A stretch of DNA of 27,210 nucleotides. Origin: Escherichia coli (GTDB taxonomy: Bacteria; Pseudomonadota; Gammaproteobacteria; Enterobacterales; Enterobacteriaceae). The first letter of the stretch is position 1; each line of letters opens with the position of its first letter. Both the position numbers and the translations under genes were made by a program. Positions 8,330-27,210 of this stretch are shown piece by piece. The notes beneath the pieces are model-generated. The model had not been told where the DNA came from, did not search any database, and worked only from the letters and a program-made list of their open reading frames with translations. Location of the stretch: the NCBI GenBank assembly GCA_005388305.1, contig GCA_005388305.1_4327.1; one strand, 5' to 3'.

Positions 8330-8617
8330 CTAACTATAATAGTTCGCTATTAGGTCGTCAACCTGTTTAAACGAACCAACGACAAAAACATTCGCACCAC
8401 GTTTACGCATACGCTCGTGCTCACGTAACTGGTGTGGGTCTGGCTTCGTGTTTTCGTCTTTCTTAACCTCGACGAACAAGACGATGCCGCCGGGTAGAAT
8501 TACCAGCAGGTCGGGAGCGCCGGAGCGCCCCTCATAGGAAAGTTTACGAACGAGGCCGCCGATAGCCTCGAATCGCTCTTTTGCGTATTTCTGCACGCGC
8601 CCCTCAGGCGTACTCAT
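8330..8617 (-). CDS. VRR-NUC domain nuclease, 95 aa
   Basis: Small PD-(D/E)xK-type protein with GAPDLLV…VEVKK acidic/Lys catalytic pattern typical of VRR-NUC; GGGAGGGG RBS upstream of the ATG at 8617. Confidence 0.7.
   Translation of the reverse strand: MSTPEGRVQKYAKERFEAIGGLVRKLSYEGRSGAPDLLVILPGGIVLFVEVKKDENTKPDPHQLREHERMRKRGANVFVVGSFKQVDDLIANYYS
8333..8361 (-). promoter_or_regulatory. sigma70-like promoter (TTGACG-17-TATAGT on the - strand) inside a copy of the conserved 30-bp element
   Basis: + strand reads AACTATAATAGTTCGCTATTAGGTCGTCAAC; reverse complement gives -35 TTGACG (8361-8356), 17-bp spacer, -10 TATAGT (8338-8333). Overlaps the 3' end of the VRR-NUC CDS and sits ~35 nt upstream of the 63-aa gene. 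Confidence 0.5.
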
Positions 8618-11838: not shown

Positions 11839-11867
11839 ACTATAATAGCTAACTATTCAGGTGTCAA
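11839..11867 (-). promoter_or_regulatory. sigma70-like promoter (TTGACA-17-TATAGT on the - strand) inside a copy of the conserved 30-bp element
   Basis: + strand GAACTATAATAGCTAACTATTCAGGTGTCAACAC; - strand -35 TTGACA (11867-11862), 17-bp spacer, -10 TATAGT (11844-11839); ~50 nt upstream of the SSB-like ATG. Confidence 0.55.
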
Positions 11868-14142: not shown

Positions 14143-14171
14143 ACTATAATAGTGAACTATTCACTTGTCAA
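14143..14171 (-). promoter_or_regulatory. sigma70-like promoter (TTGACA-17-TATAGT on the - strand) inside a copy of the conserved 30-bp element, in a divergent intergenic region
   Basis: + strand TAACTATAATAGTGAACTATTCACTTGTCAATGG; - strand -35 TTGACA (14171-14166), 17-bp spacer, -10 TATAGT (14148-14143). A second partial copy of the element (GGTACTATTCACATATCAA, 14197-14215) lies just before the rightward XRE gene. Confidence 0.55.
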
Positions 14172-14235
14172 TGGGCTTTTCTAAAATAATTAATATGGTA
14201 CTATTCACATATCAACTGACTAAGGAGTAATTGAC

Positions 14236-14451
14236 ATGCAACCATCTGAACTAGGCATCCGTGTAGAACAGCGCCGTAAAGAACTCAGTATTTCCCAGCG
14301 CCGTCTGGCTGTCCTGACCGGCGTTTCCCAGGGTGCAATTAACCAGCTTGCACTCGGGGTAACGCGGGACGTCCGCCCAGCAACGCTGTTTAAACTGGCG
14401 GAAGTGCTAGAGGTAGACGCCAAGTGGCTGGCGTTCGGTGAAGGGGCTTAA
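14236..14451 (+). CDS. XRE-family helix-turn-helix transcriptional regulator (Cro/CI-like), 71 aa
   Basis: HTH signature QRRLAVLTGVSQGAINQLALG; AAGGAG RBS before ATG 14236; followed immediately by a terminator; the only rightward gene inside the leftward operon. Confidence 0.8.
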   Translation: MQPSELGIRVEQRRKELSISQRRLAVLTGVSQGAINQLALGVTRDVRPATLFKLAEVLEVDAKWLAFGEGA

Positions 14452-14467
14452 CGCCCCTTTCTTTTTA
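14441..14467. terminator. rho-independent terminator after the XRE gene (between convergent genes)
   Basis: AAGGGGC-TTAAC-GCCCCTT hairpin containing the XRE stop codon, followed by TCTTTTTATT. Confidence 0.55.
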
Positions 14468-14662
14468 TTGCACCTTTATCGGGTATCTTTTGCGAAACTT
14501 ACCTAACCCGCAGTATACGCTGTAAGCCTCTGTGTAACTGTACACAACATGATACCCGCGCCCGTAAGGAACTACGTTAAGAACTTCCACTACTTCGCCT
14601 CTGTGGTTGGTGCATTTATTACCTTTAAGTTCGTCGCTTACTTCTTTAAATTTACCGCTCAT
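14465..14662 (-). CDS. hypothetical protein, 65 aa
   Basis: ATG at 14662 forms an ATGA overlap with the primase-helicase stop (14659-14661); no recognisable motif. Confidence 0.45.
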   Translation of the reverse strand: MSGKFKEVSDELKGNKCTNHRGEVVEVLNVVPYGRGYHVVYSYTEAYSVYCGLGKFRKRYPIKVQ

Positions 14663-16926
14663 TCCAAATCCTCCTCTGTCACTGTCAGCATCTCATTCGG
14701 TTCATATATTGTCTTCGGAATCTTGTTATCAGTTATCCGGGTGTTCAGCCTGTAACGGCAAGGGATTATCTGATTGTTTTCGTCAGTCCCCGGAACAAGA
14801 TACCCAGCCTCAACCATTTTCTTAATCTTCCCGCGTTCTATGGCTTCTTTGGAGTTAAACGCCTTTGCATTGGGGTCAGACTGTGCGAGCTTATTAGCGG
14901 CGGCGACTGTGATGCCTTCGTTGCCGTTGTAGGTTCCTTCCGCCAGTTCAAACGCCGCCAGTATCGTGGCTTCCGAACTGTTGACGGCGTTCTCCATGGT
15001 TCTACGTACGTTTTCTTTACCTTCCTTAGTCAGTCCTTCTTCCCGCTCTTTCTCCTCGTCAGTCTTGAACGGCTCGAAACCCCACGGCATTAACACAAGT
15101 GCCTTATGCGGCTCCGGCAGGTCGAGGTTTACGATTGTGCCGTATTCCTCCGTGCTACCGAGGAACTCAACCGCACGGTACTCTTTCGGCGGCGGCGCTT
15201 CACGGAACTGTACAGACTCCAGCACCATACCAACCGTCTTCTGTTGAGGCCCGTGCTTGAATTTCGAGTGGTATACATTTATCTGGCGGTCGGTAGCTCG
15301 TTCGATTGTCAGTTCCACGTCGACGCCAGCATACAGCGCCCCACTGCCACGGGCTTTCTTTCCGCCCTTCGGCGTATGGTGGACAACGCCTACCGCAGCT
15401 TTAGTCGCGTCACGTACTTCTTTCAGGATGGCGATAACCTTACCCATGCCGATTGCCGTTGATGAACTGTTCTCGTCGAACTTATCAATCGTCAGGGCTA
15501 GCGTCTGGTTGAGGGTGTCGAACGCAACCATGCCGATGGGTTCGTCACCCGCAGTTTCACGCATCAACTTAATCAGGCTTTTCAGTTTTCCGACTTCGCC
15601 CATGTCGATGACATGTACATAATCTTTACCTTCCTCGCCATATTTAGCCGCGAGCGCATCGATACGGGTGCGGGTAGCTGCGCCGCCTTCACCGTCGATA
15701 TAGAAATGGTGGCAACGCTGCGTATCTGCCCCCGCAAACCGGTATCCGGCGGCGCTCAGGTACGCCATCCCCAGCGTATAGAACGATTTGTACGTGCCGG
15801 ATTCCCCGACAATATCCCAGATACAATCTGACGGCATGTACCCTTCAACGACGAAATCCGCCTTTACCGGTTCCGGTAACTCGTCATCCTCTGAGTCCTC
15901 GTCATCTTCCAGGTCGTCGAGGCTGCATGAAACAGATTCACGTGCACCCCATCCGATGGCCTCTGCGACTTCACTGAACGGCAGCCCCGTCGCATCGCAC
16001 GCATACTTCCACACCTCTTTCGGTGACATGCCTTCGGTCGCCGTAATGTCGGTGTCGTGAATCATTGTTACGTTCGGCGCCTCATATCCCTCTCGCGGGA
16101 AGCACAGCAGGAAGTCATCCGGGCGCGGCGTCGGGTCGCTGTAGTTTTCTGCGTGTTCTGGCGTAGCTGGCATCTTAAGGCCTCGTGGCGTCATGATACC
16201 GCCATACTCGAACGCCAGTGCCTCGAACGCGTCGGTAAACGCGGTGCGCAGTTCTTCCGGTATCTGGTAATCCGATGCGCTGCTAACGTCAACGGCGGGG
16301 ATGCCTTCCAGTAACTCGTCCGGGTCAATCAGGTCGTTGCGGCGTGACCAGATAACGGTAGAGCCAACCGGAGGCAGGTACATCGGTTGCGAAAGAGTGA
16401 ACCCGCTGCGGTCAGCACCCATGCTTTTGAAGAAGTGTTCCAGCAATCCATGGCGAACACGGATGATGTCACCACCTTCGACCGGACGGGCCAGCGGCAT
16501 GACGACGCGAAAGCGCGGGGACTCGTCGGTATGTGATGCCGTGGTATAGAGGCACATGGCCTGGCGGCTACGCTTAACCAGGCGTACAGCTTCCTGATAC
16601 TCTTCCGGCGTTGCACTGTCGAAGTCCAGATACGCCAGCGACGATTTGCTTACAGACGCATCACAGCGATAGAAGAAACCCTTACGCGCTTGCTTAAAGT
16701 CGCCGGTTTTCGGGTCTTTTACAGTGCTGTGCGTCGAGTCGCACGCGGCGGTGATATAACCGGGCGCGGTCTTCGGGTTAATTCCGTCACGGACAGCATC
16801 AAGCGGCTGGATTAACTCTTTCAGGTCGTCCAGTGTTGCCGTGTGTGTGGTTCTGACGTTTATATCCTTTTTCTCTGCCCGCGCGTTGCGACGTGACCAC
16901 GAGTAGGATAAAATTACATCGGACAT
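14659..16926 (-). CDS. replicative primase-helicase (N-terminal primase-polymerase-like region plus C-terminal RecA/RepA-like AAA_25 ATPase), 755 aa
   Basis: Walker A GESGTYKS, Walker B MVAFDTL, VVHHTPKGG motif typical of RepA-like ATPases; N-terminal half has an acidic LAYLDFD motif reminiscent of prim-pol catalytic sites. Confidence 0.75.
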   Translation of the reverse strand: MSDVILSYSWSRRNARAEKKDINVRTTHTATLDDLKELIQPLDAVRDGINPKTAPGYITAACDSTHSTVKDPKTGDFKQARKGFFYRCDASVSKSSLAYLDFDSATPEEYQEAVRLVKRSRQAMCLYTTASHTDESPRFRVVMPLARPVEGGDIIRVRHGLLEHFFKSMGADRSGFTLSQPMYLPPVGSTVIWSRRNDLIDPDELLEGIPAVDVSSASDYQIPEELRTAFTDAFEALAFEYGGIMTPRGLKMPATPEHAENYSDPTPRPDDFLLCFPREGYEAPNVTMIHDTDITATEGMSPKEVWKYACDATGLPFSEVAEAIGWGARESVSCSLDDLEDDEDSEDDELPEPVKADFVVEGYMPSDCIWDIVGESGTYKSFYTLGMAYLSAAGYRFAGADTQRCHHFYIDGEGGAATRTRIDALAAKYGEEGKDYVHVIDMGEVGKLKSLIKLMRETAGDEPIGMVAFDTLNQTLALTIDKFDENSSSTAIGMGKVIAILKEVRDATKAAVGVVHHTPKGGKKARGSGALYAGVDVELTIERATDRQINVYHSKFKHGPQQKTVGMVLESVQFREAPPPKEYRAVEFLGSTEEYGTIVNLDLPEPHKALVLMPWGFEPFKTDEEKEREEGLTKEGKENVRRTMENAVNSSEATILAAFELAEGTYNGNEGITVAAANKLAQSDPNAKAFNSKEAIERGKIKKMVEAGYLVPGTDENNQIIPCRYRLNTRITDNKIPKTIYEPNEMLTVTEEDLE

Positions 16927-16984
16927 GTTGTATTTCCTTCAGCAAGTAATTTGGCCTCGGCGTTCACCGCGTCGGGGCTTTCTT

Positions 16985-17260
16985 TTATTCCAGGTCGCGG
17001 GAGATATTACCCTCGGGCACCAACACTTTTCCAATACTTCTCGCTTTCTCTGTAATCGGCGTTGCTCTTTTTGCCCGATAAAACTTTCCTTTATTAAGAA
17101 CCTCTCCGTGTTGCTCGAGAACATCCAAAGCATGTTTAATCGGATTTACACCGTAATTATCTAACCGGTATCTCCGAAGCCCGTCTACCGTAAAAGCGCC
17201 GTTCGCCTCGGTCAGTCTGCGTGCACACATTAATATGTGTTTCTGGAATTTAGTTAGCAT
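16985..17260 (-). CDS. hypothetical protein, 91 aa
   Basis: ORF overlapping the upstream HTH gene by 11 nt; second gene of the leftward operon; no confident motif. Confidence 0.5.
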   Translation of the reverse strand: MLTKFQKHILMCARRLTEANGAFTVDGLRRYRLDNYGVNPIKHALDVLEQHGEVLNKGKFYRAKRATPITEKARSIGKVLVPEGNISRDLE

Positions 17261-17429
17261 CTTTCACGTTCTCCTTAATCCACGCCTCCACGGTAGCTCG
17301 GTCAAACGTACCTGGCTGCCGGTAGCCGTTAATAACACGACAACACTCCGGGAACTTACCGGACCGAAGCCAGCGATTAAGAGTCATAGGGGAAACTCCG
17401 ATTAAGTCTGCTACTTCTTTCTGTGTCAT
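17250..17429 (-). CDS. AlpA/excisionase-like helix-turn-helix DNA-binding protein, ~59 aa
   Basis: MTQKEVADLIGVSPMTLNRWLRSGKFP is a typical HTH_17/AlpA-type motif. Start set at the internal ATG 17429 (AGAGGG RBS 7 nt upstream); the ORF-track start 17459 would lie inside the putative promoter. Confidence 0.6.
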   Translation of the reverse strand: MTQKEVADLIGVSPMTLNRWLRSGKFPECCRVINGYRQPGTFDRATVEAWIKENVKDAN

Positions 17430-17458
17430 TTTACGCACCCTCTTTACCAAGTGAAACA

Positions 17459-17487
17459 ACTATAACACCTACAATAACTAAACACAA
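17459..17487 (-). promoter_or_regulatory. putative sigma70-like promoter of the leftward operon (TTGTGT-17-TATAGT on the - strand) within a degenerate copy of the conserved element
   Basis: + strand CAACTATAACACCTACAATAACTAAACACAACC; - strand -10 TATAGT (17464-17459), -35 TTGTGT (17487-17482). Confidence 0.35.
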
Positions 17488-17492
17488 CCTAT

Positions 17493-17519
17493 TGACAAAA
17501 TAAAATGTAGCTGTAAAAT
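17493..17519 (+). promoter_or_regulatory. putative rightward sigma70-like promoter (TTGACA-15-TAAAAT), back-to-back with the leftward promoter
   Basis: TTGACA at 17493-17498, TAAAAT at 17514-17519; the 15-bp spacer is shorter than optimal. Confidence 0.35.
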
Positions 17520-17752
17520 CAACGTATCGAAGGACCTTAGTTCAGAATTACTTAGAAACATTATTCTTAAGTCTCGGGTACTTAAAGCCCCGCCTTAAAG
17601 CGGGGCGCTAAACAGTACTCTTGGTAACGTTAGTATCTAAGTTTCCTCAAAGTAACAGCAAGTGGCAAGAAAGCCCCCGTCTATTTAAATTTTACCCTCC
17701 TTCATAAGTACCTGATAATTAAAAGTTTCTATAGTTGCCGTGAGTGAGGTAG

Positions 17753-17811
17753 AGAGTACTTCACTCCGCTGGGGTGGGCTAACGCCCACCCACTGCGTTG
17801 CGTACTCTTTT
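17753..17811 (+). terminator. compound hairpin followed by a T-tract (putative terminator or structured RNA element) in the non-coding control region
   Basis: Outer stem AGAGTAC (17753-17759) / GTACTCT (17802-17808) enclosing inner stem GGGTGGGC-TAAC-GCCCACCC (17772-17791), followed by TTTT (17808-17811). Confidence 0.4.
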
Positions 17812-17850
17812 AAGAAACGAAAGAATCACAACGGCAACGTAACTATTTTC

Positions 17851-17879
17851 TTGCACACCCAAACATAATAGGGTACTAT
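17851..17879 (+). promoter_or_regulatory. sigma70-like promoter (TTGCAC-17-TACTAT) inside a copy of the conserved element, driving the rightward small-gene block
   Basis: -35 TTGCAC 17851-17856, spacer containing CATAATAG, -10 TACTAT 17874-17879, then AGGAG RBS and ATG 17914. Confidence 0.5.
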
Positions 17880-17913
17880 TCACTTATCGAAACGAGACAG
17901 AGGAGTGAGGGTT

Positions 17914-18102
17914 ATGTTTAAGAATGGTCAGTTGGTTAAAGCTGTAAATAGCTATTATTGTGTTGTTGAAAGAGAGTCTGTCGTTTTTCTCGGAACTTAT
18001 AGGGTGCGTTTTCTCGGGAAAAGATTAGGCGCGGTAGATTGGTTCCGTGAAGACGAGCTAACACTCATCGGCAACAATTTTAAATTCAAAGGGGCGAAGT
18101 GA
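17914..18102 (+). CDS. hypothetical protein, 62 aa
   Basis: ATG 17914 with AGGAG RBS (the ORF track begins at an upstream GTG); first gene after the promoter. Confidence 0.55.
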   Translation: MFKNGQLVKAVNSYYCVVERESVVFLGTYRVRFLGKRLGAVDWFREDELTLIGNNFKFKGAK

Positions 18103-18302
18103 TGGAAGAATTATTTGAAGAACTGAAACATCATGATTTCGAGGAAATATATTTCGTAGCTGAACGCTACGAGGTGCATTTATCGGACGGGATTACAATT
18201 ATTACGATGGATAGCCAGCAAATGCTAAATAGCTTACAGGCAATCAAAACGGCATCGAATCGTGATGCTTGTGCCGACGACTCTGAGGGAGGTTGCCGTT
18301 AA
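18102..18302 (+). CDS. hypothetical acidic protein, 66 aa
   Basis: ATG 18102 overlaps the upstream TGA by 1 nt (TGATG). Confidence 0.55.
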   Translation: MEELFEELKHHDFEEIYFVAERYEVHLSDGITIITMDSQQMLNSLQAIKTASNRDACADDSEGGCR

Positions 18303-18502
18303 TGCGAATCCGTATAACTGACCGCAGGCTTATAGATTTCGGTATCTCGGTAGGTGATGTTTTTCCGGCGTTCAGCAGCAACCATTATGGTTTTATGATT
18401 GAGTACAAAGGGTCGTTATTGTTCGTGTATCGGGATGAATGCGAGGTTCTGGTATGGGTCCCTATAACCGGTTTCGTCTGGAGCGTCTACGTCGCGGATT
18501 AA
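18302..18502 (+). CDS. hypothetical protein, 66 aa
   Basis: ATG 18302 overlaps the upstream TAA (TAATG). Confidence 0.55.
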   Translation: MRIRITDRRLIDFGISVGDVFPAFSSNHYGFMIEYKGSLLFVYRDECEVLVWVPITGFVWSVYVAD

Positions 18503-18648
18503 GTAACGCTAAATTAGCTCTCGATATATGGGAGAGTACGCCATATTCTTCCTCGAAGGCATGGTTTGTAGCCCGTGCTAAAGCGTCCGTACAGTATCGC
18601 GAGTACAAGTTAAATAGTTTCCTTAGACACCACGGGGTTGAGTTATGA
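18454..18648 (+). CDS. hypothetical basic protein, ~64 aa (start uncertain)
   Basis: ORF in another frame overlapping the previous gene by ~50 nt; candidate starts ATG 18439 or 18454; Arg-rich N-terminus. Confidence 0.3.
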   Translation: MGPYNRFRLERLRRGLSNAKLALDIWESTPYSSSKAWFVARAKASVQYREYKLNSFLRHHGVEL

Positions 18649-18788
18649 GAGAAGCATTCGAACGGTGGGCCTTCGTCGAGGGTCTGCCGGTTAATAAGGG
18701 TTCAAAGAAAGAGTACCTGAACGTAAAGACGCGTCTCGCATGGCGGGCGTGGAAAGCTGGTGTGTTGTTTATCGCGAATCAGAGGTGA
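18645..18788 (+). CDS. hypothetical protein, 47 aa (below ORF-track cutoff)
   Basis: ATG 18645 in ATGA overlap with the upstream stop; translation MREAFERWAFVEGLPVNKGSKKEYLNVKTRLAWRAWKAGVLFIANQR. Confidence 0.35.
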   Translation: MREAFERWAFVEGLPVNKGSKKEYLNVKTRLAWRAWKAGVLFIANQR

Positions 18789-18791
18789 TTT

Positions 18792-18992
18792 ATGGGTGAG
18801 TGGATTAAGTGTAGTGAGATGCTGCCGGGTAATGGGTATACGGATAAAGAGTTCCTGGTGTATGAAACGTTAAATAACGCAGTTCAGCACGATTATTACA
18901 TAGTTCCTGATGACGGGAGAAAGCCCTTCTGGAATCACTACGATAAGTACGTGACGCACTGGATGCCGTTACCAGAGCCGCCGGAAGTGTGA
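18792..18992 (+). CDS. DUF551-like phage protein, 66 aa
   Basis: C-terminal THWMPLPEPPE is the signature I recall for DUF551 proteins of enterobacterial phages; AGAGG RBS 6 nt before ATG. Confidence 0.55.
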   Translation: MGEWIKCSEMLPGNGYTDKEFLVYETLNNAVQHDYYIVPDDGRKPFWNHYDKYVTHWMPLPEPPEV

Positions 18993-19126
18993 TGTTCAAT
19001 AGTTTGGGATTTTACTGAGTGACTTACGCTGCTACACAGCAGCGTACAACTTTAACTTAGTGTCGTCAAAAGGCGACACTTTCATCAAACGCAACAATCG
19101 AAGCGACTATTGCAGGAGATGCAACA

Positions 19127-19300
19127 ATGATTACTAAAGAACAGGCTGAACGACTACTCACGTTAATCGACACGATGATTGACGTAAAAACCGATTTAGC
19201 AACGGCAACAGAGGAATCCGCTACCTGGTCGCTTGAAGAAAGAGAAGCAGAAGCGGAAAGGGAGTTACTGGCGTTCATCGGCTCTATAACACACCAATAA
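19127..19300 (+). CDS. hypothetical protein, 57 aa (below ORF-track cutoff)
   Basis: ATG 19127 with AGGAG RBS; same strand as neighbours; replaces the antisense ORF-track call 19066..19278 (-). Confidence 0.4.
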   Translation: MITKEQAERLLTLIDTMIDVKTDLATATEESATWSLEEREAEAERELLAFIGSITHQ

Positions 19301-19307
19301 AATTTAC

Positions 19308-19336
19308 TTGCACACTAAGATATAATAGGCTACTAT
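19308..19336 (+). promoter_or_regulatory. sigma70-like promoter (TTGCAC-17-TACTAT) inside a copy of the conserved element
   Basis: -35 TTGCAC 19308-19313, spacer containing TATAATAG, -10 TACTAT 19331-19336; RBS GAGAGGAGAG and ATG 19368 follow. Confidence 0.5.
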
Positions 19337-19367
19337 TCATTTACACGAGCGAGAGGAGAGACAGAAT

Positions 19368-19496
19368 ATGAAAGATTATAGCGAAGTAACTTTAGGTGAG
19401 TTGCAGGACGAGTACGAAGATATGCGCTACCCGTTCATCTGCGACGGGGACTACAACGGCGTCTATAACGGGGTGAGCGAAGAATATGAACACTAA
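19368..19496 (+). CDS. hypothetical acidic protein, 42 aa (below ORF-track cutoff)
   Basis: ATG 19368 with strong RBS directly after the promoter; overlaps the next gene by 11 nt. Confidence 0.4.
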   Translation: MKDYSEVTLGELQDEYEDMRYPFICDGDYNGVYNGVSEEYEH

Positions 19497-19965
19497 AAAC
19501 GAAATATTCGAGTACCTGATCGACCAGCTACGGCAGCAGGTAAATAACAGCCGGAGCGAAGACCTGGCGCATGAGGTGCAGTCACTTAAGAATCAGTTAC
19601 GTGATGCGTCGGCGCAGATTAAGGAGTTGCATAAGGCGTTGGCTACGGCTACAGGTGACATAGGTGCTTATATAGCAGCAGAGCAATCTGGTTGCCGTAA
19701 GGAAGATACTCAGTACAACGCCTGGAGGCCGCATTATGGTGCACGACAACCTGTGCCGGATGGGACTATGGTATTTATCCGGTATCGCAACGGGGTGGAG
19801 CCGAAACACAGTGTAGCAGCAGAAAAGCGGTCGTGGATTTGGGATGGAACATACGCAGACATAGTGGAATACAAGATTGACACACAGGAATGTGAACATG
19901 ACTATCGTTTGGTTCTGTGGTGTAGCGACTTACAGCAGTGCTCTAAATGCGGGGTGATCAAATGA
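19486..19965 (+). CDS. hypothetical protein with N-terminal coiled coil and C-terminal Cys/His cluster, 159 aa
   Basis: Largest gene of the early block; C-terminus CEHDYRLVLWCSDLQQCSKCG suggests a zinc-binding module. Confidence 0.6.
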   Translation: MNTKNEIFEYLIDQLRQQVNNSRSEDLAHEVQSLKNQLRDASAQIKELHKALATATGDIGAYIAAEQSGCRKEDTQYNAWRPHYGARQPVPDGTMVFIRYRNGVEPKHSVAAEKRSWIWDGTYADIVEYKIDTQECEHDYRLVLWCSDLQQCSKCGVIK

Positions 19966-20165
19966 CCAGCATATTATTTATCTGGGTACTGTCGGCGGGC
20001 CAGATGCAACTAGCGGCATCGGAAACGTTTTATTCGACGGAGGCGTGCCAGTCCGCGGCACGCGCCGCAGAGAACGCGCACTTCCTGTTTCAGGGCGACA
20101 AGCCCAACGATTCAGAGGTACGCGCTATCTGCTCACCTAAGCGACTTGGTAAACAGGAGAAATAA
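19962..20165 (+). CDS. small protein with N-terminal hydrophobic signal/anchor sequence, 67 aa
   Basis: ATG 19962 in ATGA overlap with the upstream stop; N-terminus MTSILFIWVLSAGQMQLAAS is signal-peptide-like. Confidence 0.5.
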   Translation: MTSILFIWVLSAGQMQLAASETFYSTEACQSAARAAENAHFLFQGDKPNDSEVRAICSPKRLGKQEK

Positions 20166-20166
20166 C

Positions 20167-20352
20167 ATGGTACAGAAACTATATGTTCCGTATACAGAAG
20201 AATCCGCGTCAGATTGGTCACCGAATTGTGTAGTTATGTATGAAGACTACGCGGAACTGGAACGCAAACTTCGTAACTTCGCCGACCAGGTATTGTATGT
20301 ACCTTGTTCGAAAGTTACCGAAGAAATGGCGATGGAGATTCTCGGCATATGA
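20167..20352 (+). CDS. hypothetical protein, 61 aa
   Basis: ATG 20167 with AGGAGA RBS. Confidence 0.5.
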   Translation: MVQKLYVPYTEESASDWSPNCVVMYEDYAELERKLRNFADQVLYVPCSKVTEEMAMEILGI

Positions 20353-20630
20353 GCCTTGCAACTGACATCCTGAAACGAAGCGGCCTTGCGCCGCTGTCAC
20401 CAAAAGTTAAGACGCGAGCGCGTAACGCAACTTACCGCGAACTGGCAGAACGGCGCAAAGCTATCCGCGCCTGTGGATTCCAGAACGGGAAGGCTGTTAA
20501 TCTCGGTGAGTTCAAGACAAAGGAACGCGCCGATATCGCTAATAGGCTATTTAATTACTGGAAATCGCTGGGGTACGATGATATTCCAACGAAACCGCAG
20601 AGACGACAATACATCTGGCGCCATAAATAA
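20349..20630 (+). CDS. hypothetical basic protein, possibly DNA-binding (AP2-like segment), 93 aa
   Basis: ATG 20349 in ATGA overlap; the segment NGKAVNLGEFKTKERADIANRLFNYW loosely resembles the second half of an AP2-type DNA-binding domain (weak). Confidence 0.45.
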   Translation: MSLATDILKRSGLAPLSPKVKTRARNATYRELAERRKAIRACGFQNGKAVNLGEFKTKERADIANRLFNYWKSLGYDDIPTKPQRRQYIWRHK

Positions 20631-20660
20631 ACCGTTATTAGGATAATTCCTACCCGTGGT

Positions 20661-20700
20661 ATCCTCCAGTTACTGCATACTTAATACGCACCTGGAGGAT
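20661..20700 (+). promoter_or_regulatory. stem-loop sequestering the holin ribosome-binding site
   Basis: 9-bp inverted repeat ATCCTCCAG (20661-20669) / CTGGAGGAT (20692-20700); the 3' arm contains the GGAGGA RBS of the holin (TTG start at 20706). Confidence 0.4.
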
Positions 20701-20705
20701 TCATC

Positions 20706-21014
20706 TTGGATAAATTTACTGAAACAGTGACAGGCTGGCTTCTGGCTGCCGCACTAGCTGGCGGGGTAATAGGCCTACGGCAACACAAAGCCACTATTAC
20801 TGGTCCTGTCGATGCTCTCTGTTTTCTCGCCACTGGATTTGCGTGCGCCGTATTCGGTGCACCTCTTGCCGCTCAATGGTTCGGTATCGCAGGTGAACGC
20901 GAAATAGCGGGCCTTGGGTTCATCATTGCTATTCTCTGGATGCCGATTTATTCCCGTCTCTCTGGCATTGTCGCCGGAGAATACATCGCACGTCGCGGAG
21001 GTGGCAATGAATGA
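20706..21014 (+). CDS. holin, 102 aa (TTG start)
   Basis: Small protein with three hydrophobic segments and a charged C-terminus (ARRGGGNE), directly upstream of and overlapping the other lysis genes; GGAGGA RBS 8 nt before TTG. Confidence 0.6.
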   Translation: MDKFTETVTGWLLAAALAGGVIGLRQHKATITGPVDALCFLATGFACAVFGAPLAAQWFGIAGEREIAGLGFIIAILWMPIYSRLSGIVAGEYIARRGGGNE

Positions 21015-21279
21015 GTTATTCTGGTTTGGCGGTATGCTGGCAATTGGGGGCACATCGCTGTTTAATGTGTATCACCTGAGTGTTGACGACGGGCTTTTCG
21101 GTCGGGTGCTCTATATCCTGACCGCTATCGTCTGCGCCGCTGGATGTATCCACCTGTTACAGGGCAGCATGTCACCGACGCTGCCTGAGACATTAATCAC
21201 ATTAGTTGCGCTGCGACAGATTCGCCAGTCGTGGCTGCTATACGGAGGATATAAGCGTGTCTCGAAATATTTCAGATAA
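21007..21279 (+). CDS. lysis-associated membrane protein (putative second holin/antiholin), 90 aa
   Basis: ATG 21007 overlaps the holin 3' end by 8 nt; two hydrophobic segments (FWFGGMLAIGGTSLF, VLYILTAIVCAAGCIHLL). Confidence 0.5.
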   Translation: MNELFWFGGMLAIGGTSLFNVYHLSVDDGLFGRVLYILTAIVCAAGCIHLLQGSMSPTLPETLITLVALRQIRQSWLLYGGYKRVSKYFR

Positions 21280-21745
21280 TGGATTGCATTTCACCGCCGC
21301 GTTCGAGGGATTCCGCGGAACTGCGTATCGCGCTACGCCGGACGAGAAGTACCTGACTATTGGGTACGGAAGTTATGGCACACACGTTAAAGCGGGGCAG
21401 ACCATCACGCCAGGGCAAGGCCTCCTGTTACTGAATCGCGATATGGCTAAGGCTGTAGCTGCTGTTGACGCAGCAGCACACCATTCGCTTACACAGGCAC
21501 AGTTCGATGCGGTGTGTGACCTGGTGTATAACGCAGGTGCTGGCGTGATTGCGTCTACTACGGGCACAGGCAAGGCACTGCGTTCTGGTGATACCGCAAC
21601 ACTGCGGGCTAAGCTGGCGCTGTTCATCAACCAGAACGGCAAACCACTACTTGGCCTGCGTCGCCGTACAGCCGGGCGTCTGGCGCTGTTCGATGGTAAA
21701 CCGTGGCAAGAGGCAGAGGCTATTGGGCGTGCGGTGAAAGGTTGA
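21257..21745 (+). CDS. endolysin, lysozyme (GH24-like), ~162 aa
   Basis: N-terminal catalytic region FEGFRGTAYRATPDEKYLTIGYG (Glu…Asp…Thr spacing as in T4/lambda-type lysozymes); GTG start at 21257 preceded by GGAGGA; a strong terminator follows. Confidence 0.75.
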   Translation: MSRNISDNGLHFTAAFEGFRGTAYRATPDEKYLTIGYGSYGTHVKAGQTITPGQGLLLLNRDMAKAVAAVDAAAHHSLTQAQFDAVCDLVYNAGAGVIASTTGTGKALRSGDTATLRAKLALFINQNGKPLLGLRRRTAGRLALFDGKPWQEAEAIGRAVKG

Positions 21746-21810
21746 CACCTAAGATTAATCCGACGATACTTAAATCACCTCCTGCTCCATCCCTCTGCTC
21801 TCCAGTTTTA

Positions 21811-21842
21811 TCCCGGCCCTGACCCAGCCGGGATTTTTTTTT
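21811..21842 (+). terminator. rho-independent terminator after the lysis cassette
   Basis: Stem TCCCGGC / GCCGGGA with 10-nt loop, followed by a run of 9 T. Confidence 0.75.
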
Positions 21843-21864
21843 ATCTATTTTCTGCAATGACTAG

Positions 21865-21893
21865 TTGACTATTACCATCGACCCTATTATATT
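21865..21893 (+). promoter_or_regulatory. sigma70-like promoter (TTGACT-17-TATATT) within a variant of the conserved element
   Basis: -35 TTGACT 21865-21870, -10 TATATT 21888-21893; flanked by duplicated CCATCGAC (21875-21882 and 21897-21904) and CTATTA motifs; RBS GGAG and ATG 21927 follow. Confidence 0.5.
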
Positions 21894-21926
21894 TACTCCA
21901 TCGACAACGAGAACGGAGTAGAGAAG

Positions 21927-22067
21927 ATGAAAATCACAGATATCGAGGCATTCAAAGACGCACAACTGATGGCACGCATCGCCGTTAGTAACCTGAGCAA
22001 CAGCATTCCAGCGGACGCGTTCTGGTTCGCTGCGATGCAGACACTTAAAGCAGCTTATGCAGGAGAG
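21927..22067 (+). CDS. hypothetical protein, 46 aa (below ORF-track cutoff)
   Basis: ATG 21927 after promoter and RBS; stop overlaps the next ATG (ATGA). Confidence 0.4.
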
Positions 22068-22231
22068 AAGAAATGAGCGAACAAGGTGAAGTAAGCCAAC
22101 CATTACGAGTAGGCCGTAAAGTCAGTCACACCCCGTTCCCGACACGCGAGGAACTGATGAAACGCAACAGTTTCCCGGGGCCGGACAAGAACAAGTATCT
22201 CAATCGCATGTGGGGAGAGCGTAAAGAATGA
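22064..22231 (+). CDS. hypothetical protein, 55 aa (below ORF-track cutoff)
   Basis: ATGA-coupled at both ends; translation MSEQGEVSQPLRVGRKVSHTPFPTREELMKRNSFPGPDKNKYLNRMWGERKE. Confidence 0.4.
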   Translation, partial: REEMSEQGEVSQPLRVGRKVSHTPFPTREELMKRNSFPGPDKNKYLNRMWGERKE

Positions 22232-22413
22232 CTGACCGTGAATACGAAAAGATGATGGTAGAGGCTGTTAACGGCGGCGTAGACATCGGTCACGTGATGC
22301 ACGTCCTGAATACTAAAATCGCAGTAGCTGAGCAGATGGTTGAGTCGCTTTACGAGACACGCCGTGAACTGATTAACCGCTTCAACCTGAACAAAGGTGA
22401 CAACAATGCCTAA
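22228..22413 (+). CDS. hypothetical protein, 61 aa
   Basis: ORF-track ORF; ATGA overlap with the upstream gene. Confidence 0.5.
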   Translation: MTDREYEKMMVEAVNGGVDIGHVMHVLNTKIAVAEQMVESLYETRRELINRFNLNKGDNNA

Positions 22414-22591
22414 AATCACAATAGCATCACTTGAGCGCCGTATTCTGGTGCTTGAGTCTGAGAAACAGACGCTAGGCGGGCAACTGTCGATTAACGGAGA
22501 GTTTCAACTGGAGGCGTTTAAGTTGTTACTCGAACGTATGAAGGATGAGGAAGATTGGGCGCATTCCTTGCAAGACCTATGGCAATACTAA
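22406..22591 (+). CDS. hypothetical protein, 61 aa
   Basis: ATG 22406 with AGGTGA RBS (the ORF track starts at an upstream GTG). Confidence 0.5.
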   Translation: MPKITIASLERRILVLESEKQTLGGQLSINGEFQLEAFKLLLERMKDEEDWAHSLQDLWQY

Positions 22592-22593
22592 AC

Positions 22594-22776
22594 ATGAAAG
22601 CGCCTGAGCCAGTAGTTATCGATGGCGTCCTGTGGAAACCTTACTCGGTTAACCATATCGACGCCGACGGGAAGAAGTTCAGCTTCTACATTTTTGCAAT
22701 TAGCCGTGAGCACGCCGCTTGTGTGGTAGATGATATACGAGAAACAGCGTGGCTCGGTGATGAGATAGTGGGGTGA
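22594..22776 (+). CDS. hypothetical protein, 60 aa
   Basis: ATG 22594 two nt after the upstream stop. Confidence 0.5.
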   Translation: MKAPEPVVIDGVLWKPYSVNHIDADGKKFSFYIFAISREHAACVVDDIRETAWLGDEIVG

Positions 22777-22780
22777 GAGT

Positions 22781-22864
22781 ATGAGTCTCGAGGTGGTTAG
22801 CGGTCTGGTGGGTCTTAGTTACTTCATTGGGGTGTTGGTTGGGTTTCTGTGGGGTAGATACTAA
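22781..22864 (+). CDS. putative hydrophobic micropeptide, 27 aa
   Basis: ATG 22781 with GGTGAG RBS; translation MSLEVVSGLVGLSYFIGVLVGFLWGRY (single TM-like helix); stop overlaps the next ATG (TAATG). Confidence 0.25.
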   Translation: MSLEVVSGLVGLSYFIGVLVGFLWGRY

Positions 22865-23034
22865 TGTTTAACGACATTAATGCAGCAATCGAAGAAGCAA
22901 TCTGGCGTCGTTACAACGGTGAGCAACAACGGCACTTCTGCCTCGTGCAACGCGGTAACATGATTGCCGTAGTGCAGGACCGCGATAATAAATATACGAA
23001 TGCGATGTGGACAACGAGGAATTTCTTAGGATGA
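22864..23034 (+). CDS. hypothetical protein, 56 aa (below ORF-track cutoff)
   Basis: ATG 22864; stop overlaps the next ATG (ATGA). Confidence 0.4.
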   Translation: MFNDINAAIEEAIWRRYNGEQQRHFCLVQRGNMIAVVQDRDNKYTNAMWTTRNFLG

Positions 23035-23267
23035 TTACCAGCATTCCGAACCTGATTAAAGAATTTGGCACGATGGCGGAGACATGCCGACAAACCGGCA
23101 TCAACGAAATGACGATTGCGAAGTACAGCAAAGACGTCGATTGTGAACGCCATGTAATTTATAACAATCGTCTGATGACGCACGTTAAGACAAGCCCGGT
23201 GTTATTCACGCGCCGGGGTATTACTAAAACAGAGCAACGTATTGCTAAAGAGGAGAGTGGGGAATGA
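23031..23267 (+). CDS. hypothetical protein with HTH-like segment, 78 aa
   Basis: ATG 23031 (ATGA overlap); the segment ETCRQTGINEMTIAKYSKD looks like a helix-turn-helix. Confidence 0.5.
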   Translation: MITSIPNLIKEFGTMAETCRQTGINEMTIAKYSKDVDCERHVIYNNRLMTHVKTSPVLFTRRGITKTEQRIAKEESGE

Positions 23268-23422
23268 TTAGTATTCTGGAGTTCATCAACAACCAAGTTT
23301 GGTACGAGCCAGAGTTAAATAAGTATTCAGTTAATGGGAAAATATTTCGGCGCAAAGGCCAGGCAGAGCGTTACGCAGCTAAACTATACCGCCAGCTTGT
23401 CAAGGATGGTTTCTTCAAATGA
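23264..23422 (+). CDS. hypothetical protein, 52 aa (below ORF-track cutoff)
   Basis: ATG 23264 (ATGA overlap); last gene before the terminator. Confidence 0.4.
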   Translation: MISILEFINNQVWYEPELNKYSVNGKIFRRKGQAERYAAKLYRQLVKDGFFK

Positions 23423-23524
23423 GACTACTAATCATCCCTAACGCCTGGGCCATTCCCGTAGCTAACGACCATTACGGCGGCGATGGTAAAAGAGCACCAC
23501 GACACGGCCTATACAACTGATACA

Positions 23525-23546
23525 AGCCCTCTACGGAGGGCTTTTC
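23525..23546 (+). terminator. rho-independent terminator upstream of the packaging genes
   Basis: AGCCCTC-TACG-GAGGGCT hairpin followed by TTTT. Confidence 0.6.
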
Positions 23547-23641
23547 TGTACATCCCGCCCAATCCCCTTATATAATCCCTTTAGACGCGTAGGGCGCGTC
23601 TGGTTCGCTCTGATGGTCAGACGCATATGCAAGGGGATTCT

Positions 23642-24190
23642 ATGAAGCTGAAACTCAAGCAGCCATCGCCAGAGGTGGTGCAAGCTGCACATGAAGAAGC
23701 TGTTAGCGCAAACCGCCGCCGCCGTAAACGACCGCGCGGTAAACAGAGCCTTTATCAATCGTCCCGTAATTCCGCAGCGTTGTGGGACCCGGACTATTGC
23801 GACGCGTTAATCGAGTTCTTCGACCGCACGTCGTGGGAACTCGTGCCTACGTCTAAGGGTGACGAACGCCCACTGATTCAGGATAAACCTCCGTCACTGG
23901 CCCGCTTCGCCCGGCACATAGGCGTCACTATCCCGATTATTAAGCTGTGGCTGCGCGAGATTCCCGCATTTGCAGAAGCATACGAGACAGCACAGGCACT
24001 GGAAGAGGCGTACTTCACTGAGACAGGGGCCGCTGGCATCTCTGCTACGTTTGCTGCCGCTAAGCTGGGCCTTAGCAAAGAGAAACCAGTTGAATCGACC
24101 GAAGAAACAGCACCTACCGAGATTATTTTCAGTGTTGCAGAGCCTGTAGGTAAAATCGTAACAACGAACATGGGCGAGGTAGAGGAATGA
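23642..24190 (+). CDS. terminase small subunit, ~182 aa
   Basis: Directly upstream of and ATGA-coupled to the large terminase subunit; basic N-terminal patch (RRRRKRPRGK) and HTH-like segment (SLARFARHIGVTIPIIKLWLRE). Start ATG 23642 with AAGGGGA RBS (the ORF track uses ATG 23627). Confidence 0.55.
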   Translation: MKLKLKQPSPEVVQAAHEEAVSANRRRRKRPRGKQSLYQSSRNSAALWDPDYCDALIEFFDRTSWELVPTSKGDERPLIQDKPPSLARFARHIGVTIPIIKLWLREIPAFAEAYETAQALEEAYFTETGAAGISATFAAAKLGLSKEKPVESTEETAPTEIIFSVAEPVGKIVTTNMGEVEE

Positions 24191-27181: not shown

Positions 27182-27210
27182 TTCGATAACTGAATAGTAC
27201 ACTATTATAT
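27182..27210 (-). promoter_or_regulatory. copy of the conserved promoter element on the - strand (partial, cut by the window end)
   Basis: Reverse complement reads ATATAATAGTGTACTATTCAGTTATCGAAA, near-identical to the copy at 17864-17893; -10 TACTAT would be 27200-27195; the -35 lies beyond the window. Confidence 0.35.

Follow-up and report, generated by a model that had tools for sequence, protein, structure and literature searches.

A Kagunavirus block of twelve small genes with a conserved scaffold, exchangeable cassettes and a candidate common operator

The DNA examined here, a stretch of 27,210 nucleotides (nt) from Escherichia coli assembly GCA_005388305.1 (contig GCA_005388305.1_4327.1, called the window below), carries between positions 17914 and 20630 a block of 12 plus-strand genes encoding products of 42-159 amino acids (aa), each gene preceded by a Shine-Dalgarno sequence. 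The explanation that we favour, with moderate confidence, is that this block is an accessory small-gene array of a Kagunavirus, organised as two operons read by the host RNA polymerase, built from a conserved scaffold and cassettes, and sharing a common operator. The scaffold consists of g1, g5, g6, the N-terminus of g9, g10 and g12, with the cassettes interspersed; the cassettes themselves, namely g2, g3, g4, g7, g8, g11 and the C-terminus of g9, appear from sequence comparison to be exchanged at conserved junctions. The region is already present, unannotated, across hundreds of sequenced Guernseyvirinae genomes, and what our analysis adds is the assignment of one product to the AP2 type, a map of core and cassettes, and an operator hypothesis.

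Gene content of the block

The genes are as follows.

17914-18102, plus strand: g1, 62 aa, basic (isoelectric point, pI, 9.7), first after promoter element P1
18102-18302, plus strand: g2, 66 aa, acidic (pI 4.4, net charge -10)
18302-18502, plus strand: g3, 66 aa
18454-18648, plus strand: g4, 64 aa, basic (pI 10.4)
18645-18788, plus strand: g5, 47 aa, basic (pI 10.6)
18792-18992, plus strand: g6, 66 aa, DUF551 protein
19127-19300, plus strand: g7, 57 aa, acidic (pI 4.3), DUF7438
19368-19496, plus strand: g8, 42 aa, very acidic (pI 4.1, net charge -10)
19486-19965, plus strand: g9, 159 aa, coiled coil and zinc-ribbon-like module
19962-20165, plus strand: g10, 67 aa, hydrophobic N-terminus
20167-20352, plus strand: g11, 61 aa, acidic (pI 4.3)
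20349-20630, plus strand: g12, 93 aa, very basic (pI 10.7)

Most of these genes are joined by overlaps of the TGATG (g1/g2), TAATG (g2/g3) or ATGA (g4/g5, g9/g10, g11/g12) type, much as an initial annotation made from the sequence alone had described. Longer overlaps are found at g3/g4 (49 nt) and g8/g9 (11 nt), gaps of 1-3 nt at g5/g6 and g10/g11, and the only real intergenic gaps in the block are 18993-19126 and 19301-19367. This leaves two gene groups, and in front of each stands a single copy of a promoter element of 53 nt. The same annotation had counted about 13 genes; their rightward direction and their size range of 42-159 aa hold, but the number is 12. It had also seen no structural or replication-like product among them, and none was matched in scans of Pfam, PHROG and NCBIfam.

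Since many of the open reading frames (ORFs) are very short (42-67 aa), and the older annotations of phages K1G and K1H call only two genes here, one may also consider that they are chance frames in the long leader of a lysis operon. We regard this as extremely improbable. Each ORF is preceded by a Shine-Dalgarno sequence and shows start/stop coupling, protein-level relatives were found in other phages for all 12 (tblastn, PHROG families), and PHROG or Pfam families cover 11 of them. Divergence was measured for six genes (g1, g5, g6, the g9 N-terminus, g10 and g12), where most comparisons gave a nonsynonymous value (pN) below the synonymous one (pS), and the gene-sized insertion of g4, described below, respects the reading frames. 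By these comparisons all 12 ORFs are supported as genes.

The window belongs to a virulent siphovirus, a Kagunavirus (Guernseyvirinae), and its DNA is about 90% identical to that of K1H and UTI-CM001. In a megablast search of 17400-21800 against a phage collection, 327 records were matched, nearly all of them Escherichia Kagunavirus or Salmonella Jerseyvirus, the best being K1H (82% coverage, 90% identity) and UTI-CM001 (79% coverage, 92% identity). The block is placed between a leftward helix-turn-helix (HTH)/primase-helicase module and a holin-holin-endolysin cassette, and the gene order in the window (HTH, small genes, holins, endolysin) equals that of K1H, UTI-CM001 and the other relatives compared; both its position and its DNA identity at genus level are those of a Guernseyvirinae accessory block. 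Neither the window nor the annotated genome of phage fPoEco01 showed an integrase. The relatives counted below are 14 genomes, 12 of Kagunavirus and 2 of Jerseyvirus, whose homologous regions were compared at the protein and DNA levels.

Conserved scaffold and exchangeable cassettes

No phage record covers at least 80% of the block, which is therefore a mosaic, and some of its genes are confined to 28-50 of about 450 related records (g4 to 28, g7 to 33, g3 to 50). Others recur almost everywhere. Thus g1 (phrog_12538, E 1e-14) is found in 13 of the 14 relatives at 37-100% identity, with a pN/pS of about 0.5, and on this comparison is a core gene but a fast-evolving one, while g5 (phrog_15836, E 1e-33), present in 12 relatives at 85-98% identity, is a Kagunavirus core gene. 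The product of g6, initially described as DUF551-like, does match that family (PF04448; E 6e-12 and 46.6 bits, the cutoff being 22, over the whole profile of 68 positions), and the gene occurs in 13 relatives as two allelic types (88-100% and 27-39% identity).

The cassettes are distributed differently. A full-length g2 is present in half of the relatives (7/14), and in 5 of the other 7 only residues 47-66 are kept; at its end, ~17 codons make up a conserved junction, the stretch 18241-18304 being 90-97% identical at the DNA level. For g3 (phrog_30395, E 3e-40, residues 1-51), the label "FeoA/SH3-like" stems from depositors' HHpred notes on homologues (~96% to FeoA), and no Pfam family matched it at E <= 1. 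We found g7 (PF24219, DUF7438; E 4e-11 and 43.5 bits, the cutoff being 25) in 7 relatives, all of its phage records being of Kagunavirus type, whereas g8 (phrog_35344, E 1e-33) is patchy, with 41-100% identity. Only weak PHROG matches were obtained for g11, which is 38-64% identical in 5 relatives and whose DNA at 20177-20254 is common to just one of the 14. Four of these cassettes (g2, g7, g8 and g11) encode very acidic products of 42-66 aa, with pI 4.1-4.4 and net charges of -6 to -10; the basic products of the block are those of g1, g4, g5 and g12.

The DNA of g4 (18457-18632) has no counterpart in any of the 14 relatives: where they carry a g3 homologue, the sequences flanking g4 abut, and that homologue ends in an ATGA overlap with g5. 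Full-length 64-aa homologues with 55-91% identity are nevertheless encoded in 28 other Guernseyvirinae records (tblastn), and the overlapping g3-g4 pair is also found in phage vB_VIPECOTH07. A spurious overlapping ORF was considered and is ruled out by the 28 full-length homologues. As far as sequence comparison can tell, g4 is a single-gene cassette, a 176-nt insertion exactly at the g3-g5 junction that kept the ATGA coupling.

At 18063-18116 and 18241-18304, junctions that are 90-98% identical stand beside gene bodies that are 37-48% identical or have been replaced. This is the pattern expected of cassette exchange by homologous recombination at linkers, and in lambdoid phages cassettes are indeed exchanged by homologous recombination at conserved linkers. 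In the mechanism that we propose, the cassettes would be swapped among related phages by recombination at such short conserved junctions, and the scaffold proteins would most likely serve the phage's own programme, in regulation, envelope or lysis-related functions.

The corresponding small-ORF regions of other Guernseyvirinae (K1H ORF40-41, UTI-CM001 UMW88018-88027, fPoEco01 gp52-gp65 and SETP3 gp47-gp52) lie likewise between the HTH gene and the holins, have two promoter copies, share about 90% DNA identity over their common parts, and contain g1, g5, g6, the g9 N-terminus, g10 and g12. What distinguishes the present phage from them is its own combination of cassettes, g4 being absent from the 14 relatives and present in 28 other records. 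Nearly all of these records carry the genes as "hypothetical". A more distant parallel is offered by the ea/b2 and nin regions of lambdoid phages (lambda, P22), where small mosaic genes that look dispensable are also lined up in arrays and their junctions are conserved; in relatives of this phage NinH- and NinZ-like genes are found just past the lysis cassette, and the DUF551 of g6 has been described as a portable domain in lambdoid prophages, where YfdS and a variant of Ea22 contain it (PMC10834534, PMC4776307). In contrast to the lambdoid phages the phage studied here is virulent, and the resemblance is architectural, without demonstrated homology.

The proteins encoded by g9, g10 and g12

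The cluster of Cys and His residues that had been noticed in g9 proved to be a CxH...CxxC module with four putative metal ligands, of the zinc-ribbon or zinc-knuckle kind: C136, H138, C152 and C155 do not vary among 30 diverse homologues, some of which contain the module repeatedly. It forms the C-terminus of a protein that begins with a conserved coiled coil (residues 1-68) and has a beta-rich middle that is optional in relatives, in which the first ~76 residues are conserved and the C-terminal part is swapped. The family comprises 1334 protein clusters of 100-276 aa, those listed being mostly on contigs of 41-45 kb. Judging from these alignments, g9 is a hypervariable coiled-coil and zinc-ribbon protein. 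Its predicted structure (predicted local distance difference test, pLDDT, 71) and sequence gave no fold or family match in Pfam, among PDB sequences or in a fold search. A relationship of the middle domain to DUF551 was rejected (hhalign probability 0.2%), and so was membership among DksA/TraR-like or Ead/Ea22 proteins, for which there was no Pfam match. With Ea22 it shares only the layout, in which a conserved N-terminus and a coiled coil are combined with a C-terminal domain that can be swapped; g9 differs in its lack of an Ead_Ea22 Pfam match.

The most conserved protein of the block, more so than the endolysin, is that of g10, which is present in all 14 relatives, including the Salmonella Jerseyvirus, at 88-99% identity (pN 0.006-0.06, pN/pS about 0.1), and whose family is confined to Guernseyvirinae. 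Its hydrophobic N-terminus, which reads MTSILFIWVLSAGQMQLAAS/E, is unusually conserved and contains no basic residue, and the remainder of the protein has two invariant Cys residues (C29 and C57). A signal peptide and a membrane anchor are equally possible predictions from this sequence. Conservation of the DNA as a cis element was considered as well and rejected: relative to SETP3, pS is 0.56, similar to that of the endolysin, while pN is 0.06. With synonymous divergence at the endolysin level and pN low, the constraint is therefore on the protein. Nor is it supported that g10 is a missing spanin or Imm protein: relatives already have a putative spanin and an Imm-type gene annotated at other places, and g10 has no lipobox.

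For g12, initially suspected to be an AP2-like DNA-binding protein, profile searches bear out the suspicion, although the Pfam AP2 model misses g12 itself. The gene is present in all 14 relatives (81-87% identity within Kagunavirus, 33-35% to Jerseyvirus) and is the last gene of the block before the lysis cassette in 12 of them, one extra gene lying between in relatives L009 and L013. Its product has a conserved, family-specific MSLATDILKRSGL motif at the N-terminus. A word-indexed search retrieved only Guernseyvirinae relatives, no Pfam family, AP2 (PF00847) included, matched g12 at E <= 1, and none matched at E <= 0.1 among 18 members of its family. An exhaustive HMMER search with the g12 family profile, in contrast, yielded 185 proteins at E <= 1e-3, many of them long and matched in 3-8 repeats. 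Of those checked, four (P0219, E 9e-17, as well as P0233, P0244 and P0268) have Pfam AP2 matches of 43-113 bits, and the stretches that the g12 profile aligns, by its positions ~22-72, are the AP2 repeats; a fifth, P0291, has only HNH_3 in Pfam, and its two AP2-like repeats come from the alignment to the g12 profile. The g12 family is thus homologous, at the profile level, to bona fide AP2 domains.

In an alignment, the longer Jersey-type homologues of g12 show the AP2 pattern GV..W.A....LG.F.T.E.A..AY, and a search of PDB sequences with the g12 profile returned AP2/ERF domains only, at the non-significant E-values of 0.4-0.9. The AlphaFold model (pLDDT 70) has strands at residues 39-45 and 48-55 and a helix at 58-73, a beta-hairpin followed by a helix, where the AP2 fold is a sheet of three strands packed on a helix; a Foldseek search with it gave no significant match, AtERF1 (1gcc) ranking second (probability 0.69, E 0.5) and other AP2 structures lower. 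Because the profile-level matches are to AP2 domains though Pfam AP2 misses g12, we call it, from its sequence, a divergent AP2-type DNA-binding protein. Its family profile aligns to the canonical repeats of the AP2/ERF proteins (PF00847; plant and apicomplexan factors, and phage fusions to HNH homing endonucleases), and its predicted fold is a beta-hairpin and helix; unlike them, it is a stand-alone protein of 93 aa with a truncated or degenerate first strand and no nuclease domain.

Promoters and a candidate operator

The following elements bear on the control of the block.

17845-17897, plus strand: promoter element P1 (-35 TTGCAC at 17851-17856, 17-nt spacer, -10 TACTAT at 17874-17879)
17867-17880, plus strand: palindrome of P1, AATAGGGTACTATT, with the conserved leader ..TTATCGAAACGAGACAGAGGAG in the P1 element
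19302-19354, plus strand: promoter element P2 (-35 TTGCAC at 19308-19313, -10 TACTAT at 19331-19336)
19324-19337, plus strand: palindrome of P2, AATAGGCTACTATT, overlapping the P2 -10
8338-8351, 11844-11857 and 14148-14161, leftward: palindrome copies in the spacer of strong replication promoters (TTGACA, 17 nt, TATAGT)
27193-27206, leftward: palindrome copy in a promoter copy at the window end
14192-14205: palindrome with one mismatch, before the rightward XRE/DicA-like gene
14237-14452, plus strand: XRE (Cro/CI/DicA-type) HTH gene, 71 aa, inside the minus-strand replication module
within 21865-21893: palindrome with one mismatch (ACTAG-N4-CTATT), in a good sigma-70 promoter (TTGACT, 17 nt, TATATT)

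The suggestion that two copies of one promoter serve the block holds: P1 and P2 form a direct repeat of 53 nt with 77% identity, the 32-nt core of which has exactly two copies in the window, against 0.00 expected. The P1 element lies upstream of the g1 homologue in all 14 relatives, and in SETP3 the second copy is directly upstream of the g10 homologue. A generic sigma-70 scan missed both elements because TTGCAC matches the consensus at just 3 of 6 positions and the element as a whole at 7 of 12. We infer that P1 and P2 are weak promoters of the sigma-70 type, read by the host RNA polymerase.

In both elements the -10 falls inside a perfect 14-bp palindrome, AATAG-N4-CTATT, of which the window contains six exact copies, against 0.01 expected, all of them in promoter-like contexts. 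The complete genome of fPoEco01 has seven exact copies, each promoter-like and beside non-structural genes, as well as one-mismatch versions at its DicA-like gene and after its endolysin, and in each of the 14 relatives, SETP3 included, the homologous block lies between two palindrome copies. This distribution suggests one regulon, perhaps under a DicA/Cro-like repressor.

We propose that the palindrome would be the operator of one phage-encoded dimeric HTH regulator, for which the best candidate is the XRE/DicA-like protein of 14237-14452, whose own promoter holds a one-mismatch palindrome; the HTH_17 protein encoded at 17253-17429 would be an alternative. Because the operator is common to the block and the replication promoters, we infer that the two may be co-regulated, which would place the block in the same early/middle regulon as DNA replication. 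The arrangement resembles Cro/CI operator control (lambda OR/OL; DicA) in that a palindrome lies over core promoter elements of several operons and in that an XRE/DicA-like gene has a variant site at its own promoter. It differs in that this phage has single sites as opposed to tripartite operators, and is virulent.

Two further observations concern these sites. The XRE gene is followed by a hairpin and a run of T, and in relatives it is annotated as "transcriptional repressor DicA". The promoter at 21865-21893 comes directly after the endolysin terminator (21810-21843) and starts the next unit.

Transcription units and the lysis genes

The RNA elements and genes downstream of the two promoters are the following.

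19025-19046 and 19059-19080, plus strand: two hairpins in the g6-g7 spacer, probable terminator or attenuator of the P1 operon
20661-20700, plus strand: hairpin over the holin Shine-Dalgarno sequence (20661-20669 pairs with 20692-20700, 9 bp; RNA fold z-score -3.2)
20706-21014, plus strand: first holin (PHROG holin family)
21007-21279, plus strand: second holin (PHROG holin family)
21257-21745, plus strand: endolysin (PHROG endolysin family, Pfam Phage_lysozyme)

The g6-g7 spacer (18996-19128) aligns in all 14 relatives and has a fold z-score of -2.8. The first of its hairpins has a GC-rich stem of 9 bp, and in half of the relatives (7/14) a T-rich run comes after it, which is the arrangement of an intrinsic terminator; in the window the second hairpin takes the place of that run. 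P1 would drive g1-g6, ending at the hairpins of this conserved spacer, with g7 next. Within the spacer, the Shine-Dalgarno sequence of g7 (GGAG) is in the loop of a small hairpin, TTGCA-GGAGA-TGCAA (19110-19124), which is kept even in the Salmonella phages, whichever gene comes next.

Between g12 and the first holin a terminator scan recognised no terminator, and the first canonical one after P2, a hairpin followed by U9, is at 21810-21843, beyond the endolysin; it is therefore probable, from the sequence, that g8-g12 are co-transcribed with the lysis genes. P2 would drive g8-g12 and probably continue through holin, holin and endolysin to that terminator. The 75-nt spacer between g12 and the holin is 95-100% identical in the 12 Kagunavirus relatives, and its hairpin (20661-20700) sequesters GGAGGA (20694-20699), the Shine-Dalgarno sequence of the first holin (TTG start at 20706). 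This hairpin may be a translational gate on lysis timing, in that translation of the holin would be gated by RNA structure over its ribosome-binding site. A scan for known RNA families over 16900-23700 gave only two sub-threshold matches, both on the post-endolysin terminator.

In L009 (4923-5363) and L013 (4209-4649) the extra gene between the g12 homologue and the holins encodes about 146 aa; it is annotated as "HslV-family peptidase" in L009 and as hypothetical in L013, and is absent from the window.

The proximity of the lysis genes raises the question of whether the block is a phage-internal module for control and lysis timing, in which g12 regulates lysis or late genes, g10 is an envelope factor (for lysis or superinfection exclusion), g9 and others are regulators, and the cassettes are neutral hitch-hikers. 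A protein with a DNA-binding domain does adjoin the lysis cassette in 12 of 14 relatives, L009 and L013 having the extra gene. Moreover, g10 is extremely conserved and predicted to be exported or membrane-associated, the conserved spacer places a hairpin over the holin Shine-Dalgarno sequence, and SETP3 has its second promoter copy directly before the g10 homologue. Yet no target site of g12 has been identified, other loci of related genomes are annotated as a putative spanin and as an Imm-type gene for superinfection immunity, so that these roles are filled, and the cassettes are selected at the protein level, with full-length homologues of 55-91% identity. We consider this module quite unlikely as an account of the whole block.

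Host takeover, anti-defence and timing

The initial annotation had called the block early-type and offered it as candidate cargo for host takeover or anti-defence. Part of it is indeed variable cargo, as no record covers at least 80% of it, but half is conserved core and no anti-defence match was found. Similarity to known anti-defence or host-shutoff proteins (such as Ocr, ArdA, Acr or Gam-like proteins) was not detected in Pfam, PHROG, NCBIfam, PADLOC or the PDB, these being general libraries, none a dedicated anti-defence set, with not every product queried in each. Every PHROG match of the block is to a family of "unknown function"; NCBIfam and PADLOC gave no match for ten proteins (g8 and g11 left out), and searches of PDB sequences with g2, g6, g7, g9, g12 and a g10 profile returned nothing significant. 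Structure prediction followed by Foldseek, which had been suggested as a check and was applied to g9 and g12, likewise produced no significant fold match.

It is nonetheless worth asking whether the whole block could be early cargo directed against restriction, CRISPR, abortive infection or host macromolecular synthesis. Its genes are small, densely coupled and beside a control region, mosaicism is strong, g9 is hypervariable (1334 clusters), four cassettes have the strongly acidic character of many DNA mimics and protein inhibitors, and the candidate operator shared with replication promoters is consistent with expression before the late phase. What makes this unlikely, in our view, is that half the genes are conserved core under purifying selection, which is atypical of arms-race cargo, that nothing matches an annotated anti-defence or defence family or a solved structure, and that g8-g12 appear to be on one transcript with the lysis genes. 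In addition, Kagunavirus isolates were found to be highly sensitive to restriction-modification and variably sensitive to Old (BASEL extension, PMC11990801). The same considerations apply to a comparison with the early blocks of other virulent phages, that is, class I of T7 (Ocr, gp0.7) and the pre-early blocks of T4 and T5. These too have small genes near the start of transcription, probably read in our case also by the host RNA polymerase, and several products of the present block are very acidic. However, no sequence or fold similarity to its products was found, half of it is core in a restriction-sensitive phage group, and its second operon is seemingly continuous with the lysis genes.

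As to timing, the probable sharing of a transcript with the lysis genes makes g8-g12 a poor fit to a purely "early" label, for which the palindrome common to the block and the replication promoters gives indirect support. In a time-course transcriptome of phage vB_Eco_K1B4, the 57 genes were divided into 4 early, 42 middle and 11 late ones, and the leftward HTH gene is the only early gene named (PMC12645636); by matching the gene maps, the counterparts of the block in K1B4 are genes _009 to _015 (PMC12645636). From its sequence and setting, the block is probably a non-structural, pre-late accessory array.

Several points weigh against the accessory-array explanation as we have framed it. P1 and P2, with 7 of 12 consensus positions, are weak and could need an activator or not be promoters at all; the position of the palindrome relative to the -10 differs between the two promoter classes, and the protein that would bind it is a candidate only. 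Read-through into the holins has as its sole basis that no terminator or promoter is recognisable in the 75-nt spacer, and the K1B4 transcriptome is coarse, showing the class of the block genes in a figure only (PMC12645636). For the core proteins the proposed roles are guesses: the predicted DNA binding of g12 could serve some end besides regulation, and g10 could equally be a superinfection-exclusion factor. Finally, although some cassettes are plausible candidates for host interaction or counter-defence, there is no positive evidence of any cassette acting on the host.

One may combine these elements into a bolder proposal, which we put forward as tentative and rather doubtful as a whole. 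The acidic g2, g7, g8 and g11, together with g9, would be rotating inhibitors of host defence or host machinery, swapped as single-gene cassettes at conserved junctions. All non-structural genes of Guernseyvirinae would form a single regulon, which a DicA/Cro-like repressor would switch through the operator AATAG-N4-CTATT; the exported g10 would be a new kind of phage envelope factor, and the stand-alone AP2 protein g12 a new kind of regulator of lysis or late genes.

Surroundings of the block

To the left of the block lie the last genes of the replication module, and to the right, beyond the lysis cassette, those leading to the terminase.

14659-16926, leftward: primase-helicase, near the end of the replication module
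between the primase-helicase and HTH_17 genes, leftward: a 91-aa gene of the replication module
17253-17429, minus strand: HTH_17/MerR-like protein, 59 aa, first gene of the leftward operon
from 23627: terminase, after a second small-gene array

The HTH_17 protein is likened in depositors' annotation to RppC (the redirecting phage packaging protein of phage-inducible chromosomal island, PICI, satellites), and its gene, the one early gene that the K1B4 transcriptome names, is separated from the rightward small genes by a spacer of ~450 nt. The part of this spacer at 17460-17850 has no ORF that convinces; it contains a near-consensus rightward sigma-70 promoter (TTGACA, 16 nt, TAAAAT; 17492-17519) together with a pair of GC-rich hairpins, at about 17586-17609 and 17771-17792. 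Over its full length this DNA is common to K1G and K1H only, fPoEco01 sharing it from 17712. A small RNA may be encoded here, or tiny ORFs of the sort that the UTI89UKE1 annotation shows. The lysis cassette is separated from the terminase by a second array of ~8 small, overlapping rightward genes (21927-23422), whose counterpart in relatives includes genes of the NinH, NinZ and DUF2737 kinds, which are characteristic of nin regions in lambdoid phages.

Implications

Kagunavirus and Jerseyvirus phages are common candidates for therapy and biocontrol, and their genomes of 41-45 kb are used as engineering chassis. This block and its twin past the lysis cassette hold about one fifth of their genes, almost all of them annotated as "hypothetical". 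Our findings on this block leave the general picture of phage accessory regions unchanged. They do give the conserved gene upstream of the lysis cassette, g12, a testable identity as an AP2-type DNA binder, and they propose a testable regulatory code in which one palindrome marks promoter-like sites beside non-structural operons. For those who work with these phages, the map of core and cassettes points to likely safe sites for insertion or deletion, and to the genes worth screening for host-directed activity.

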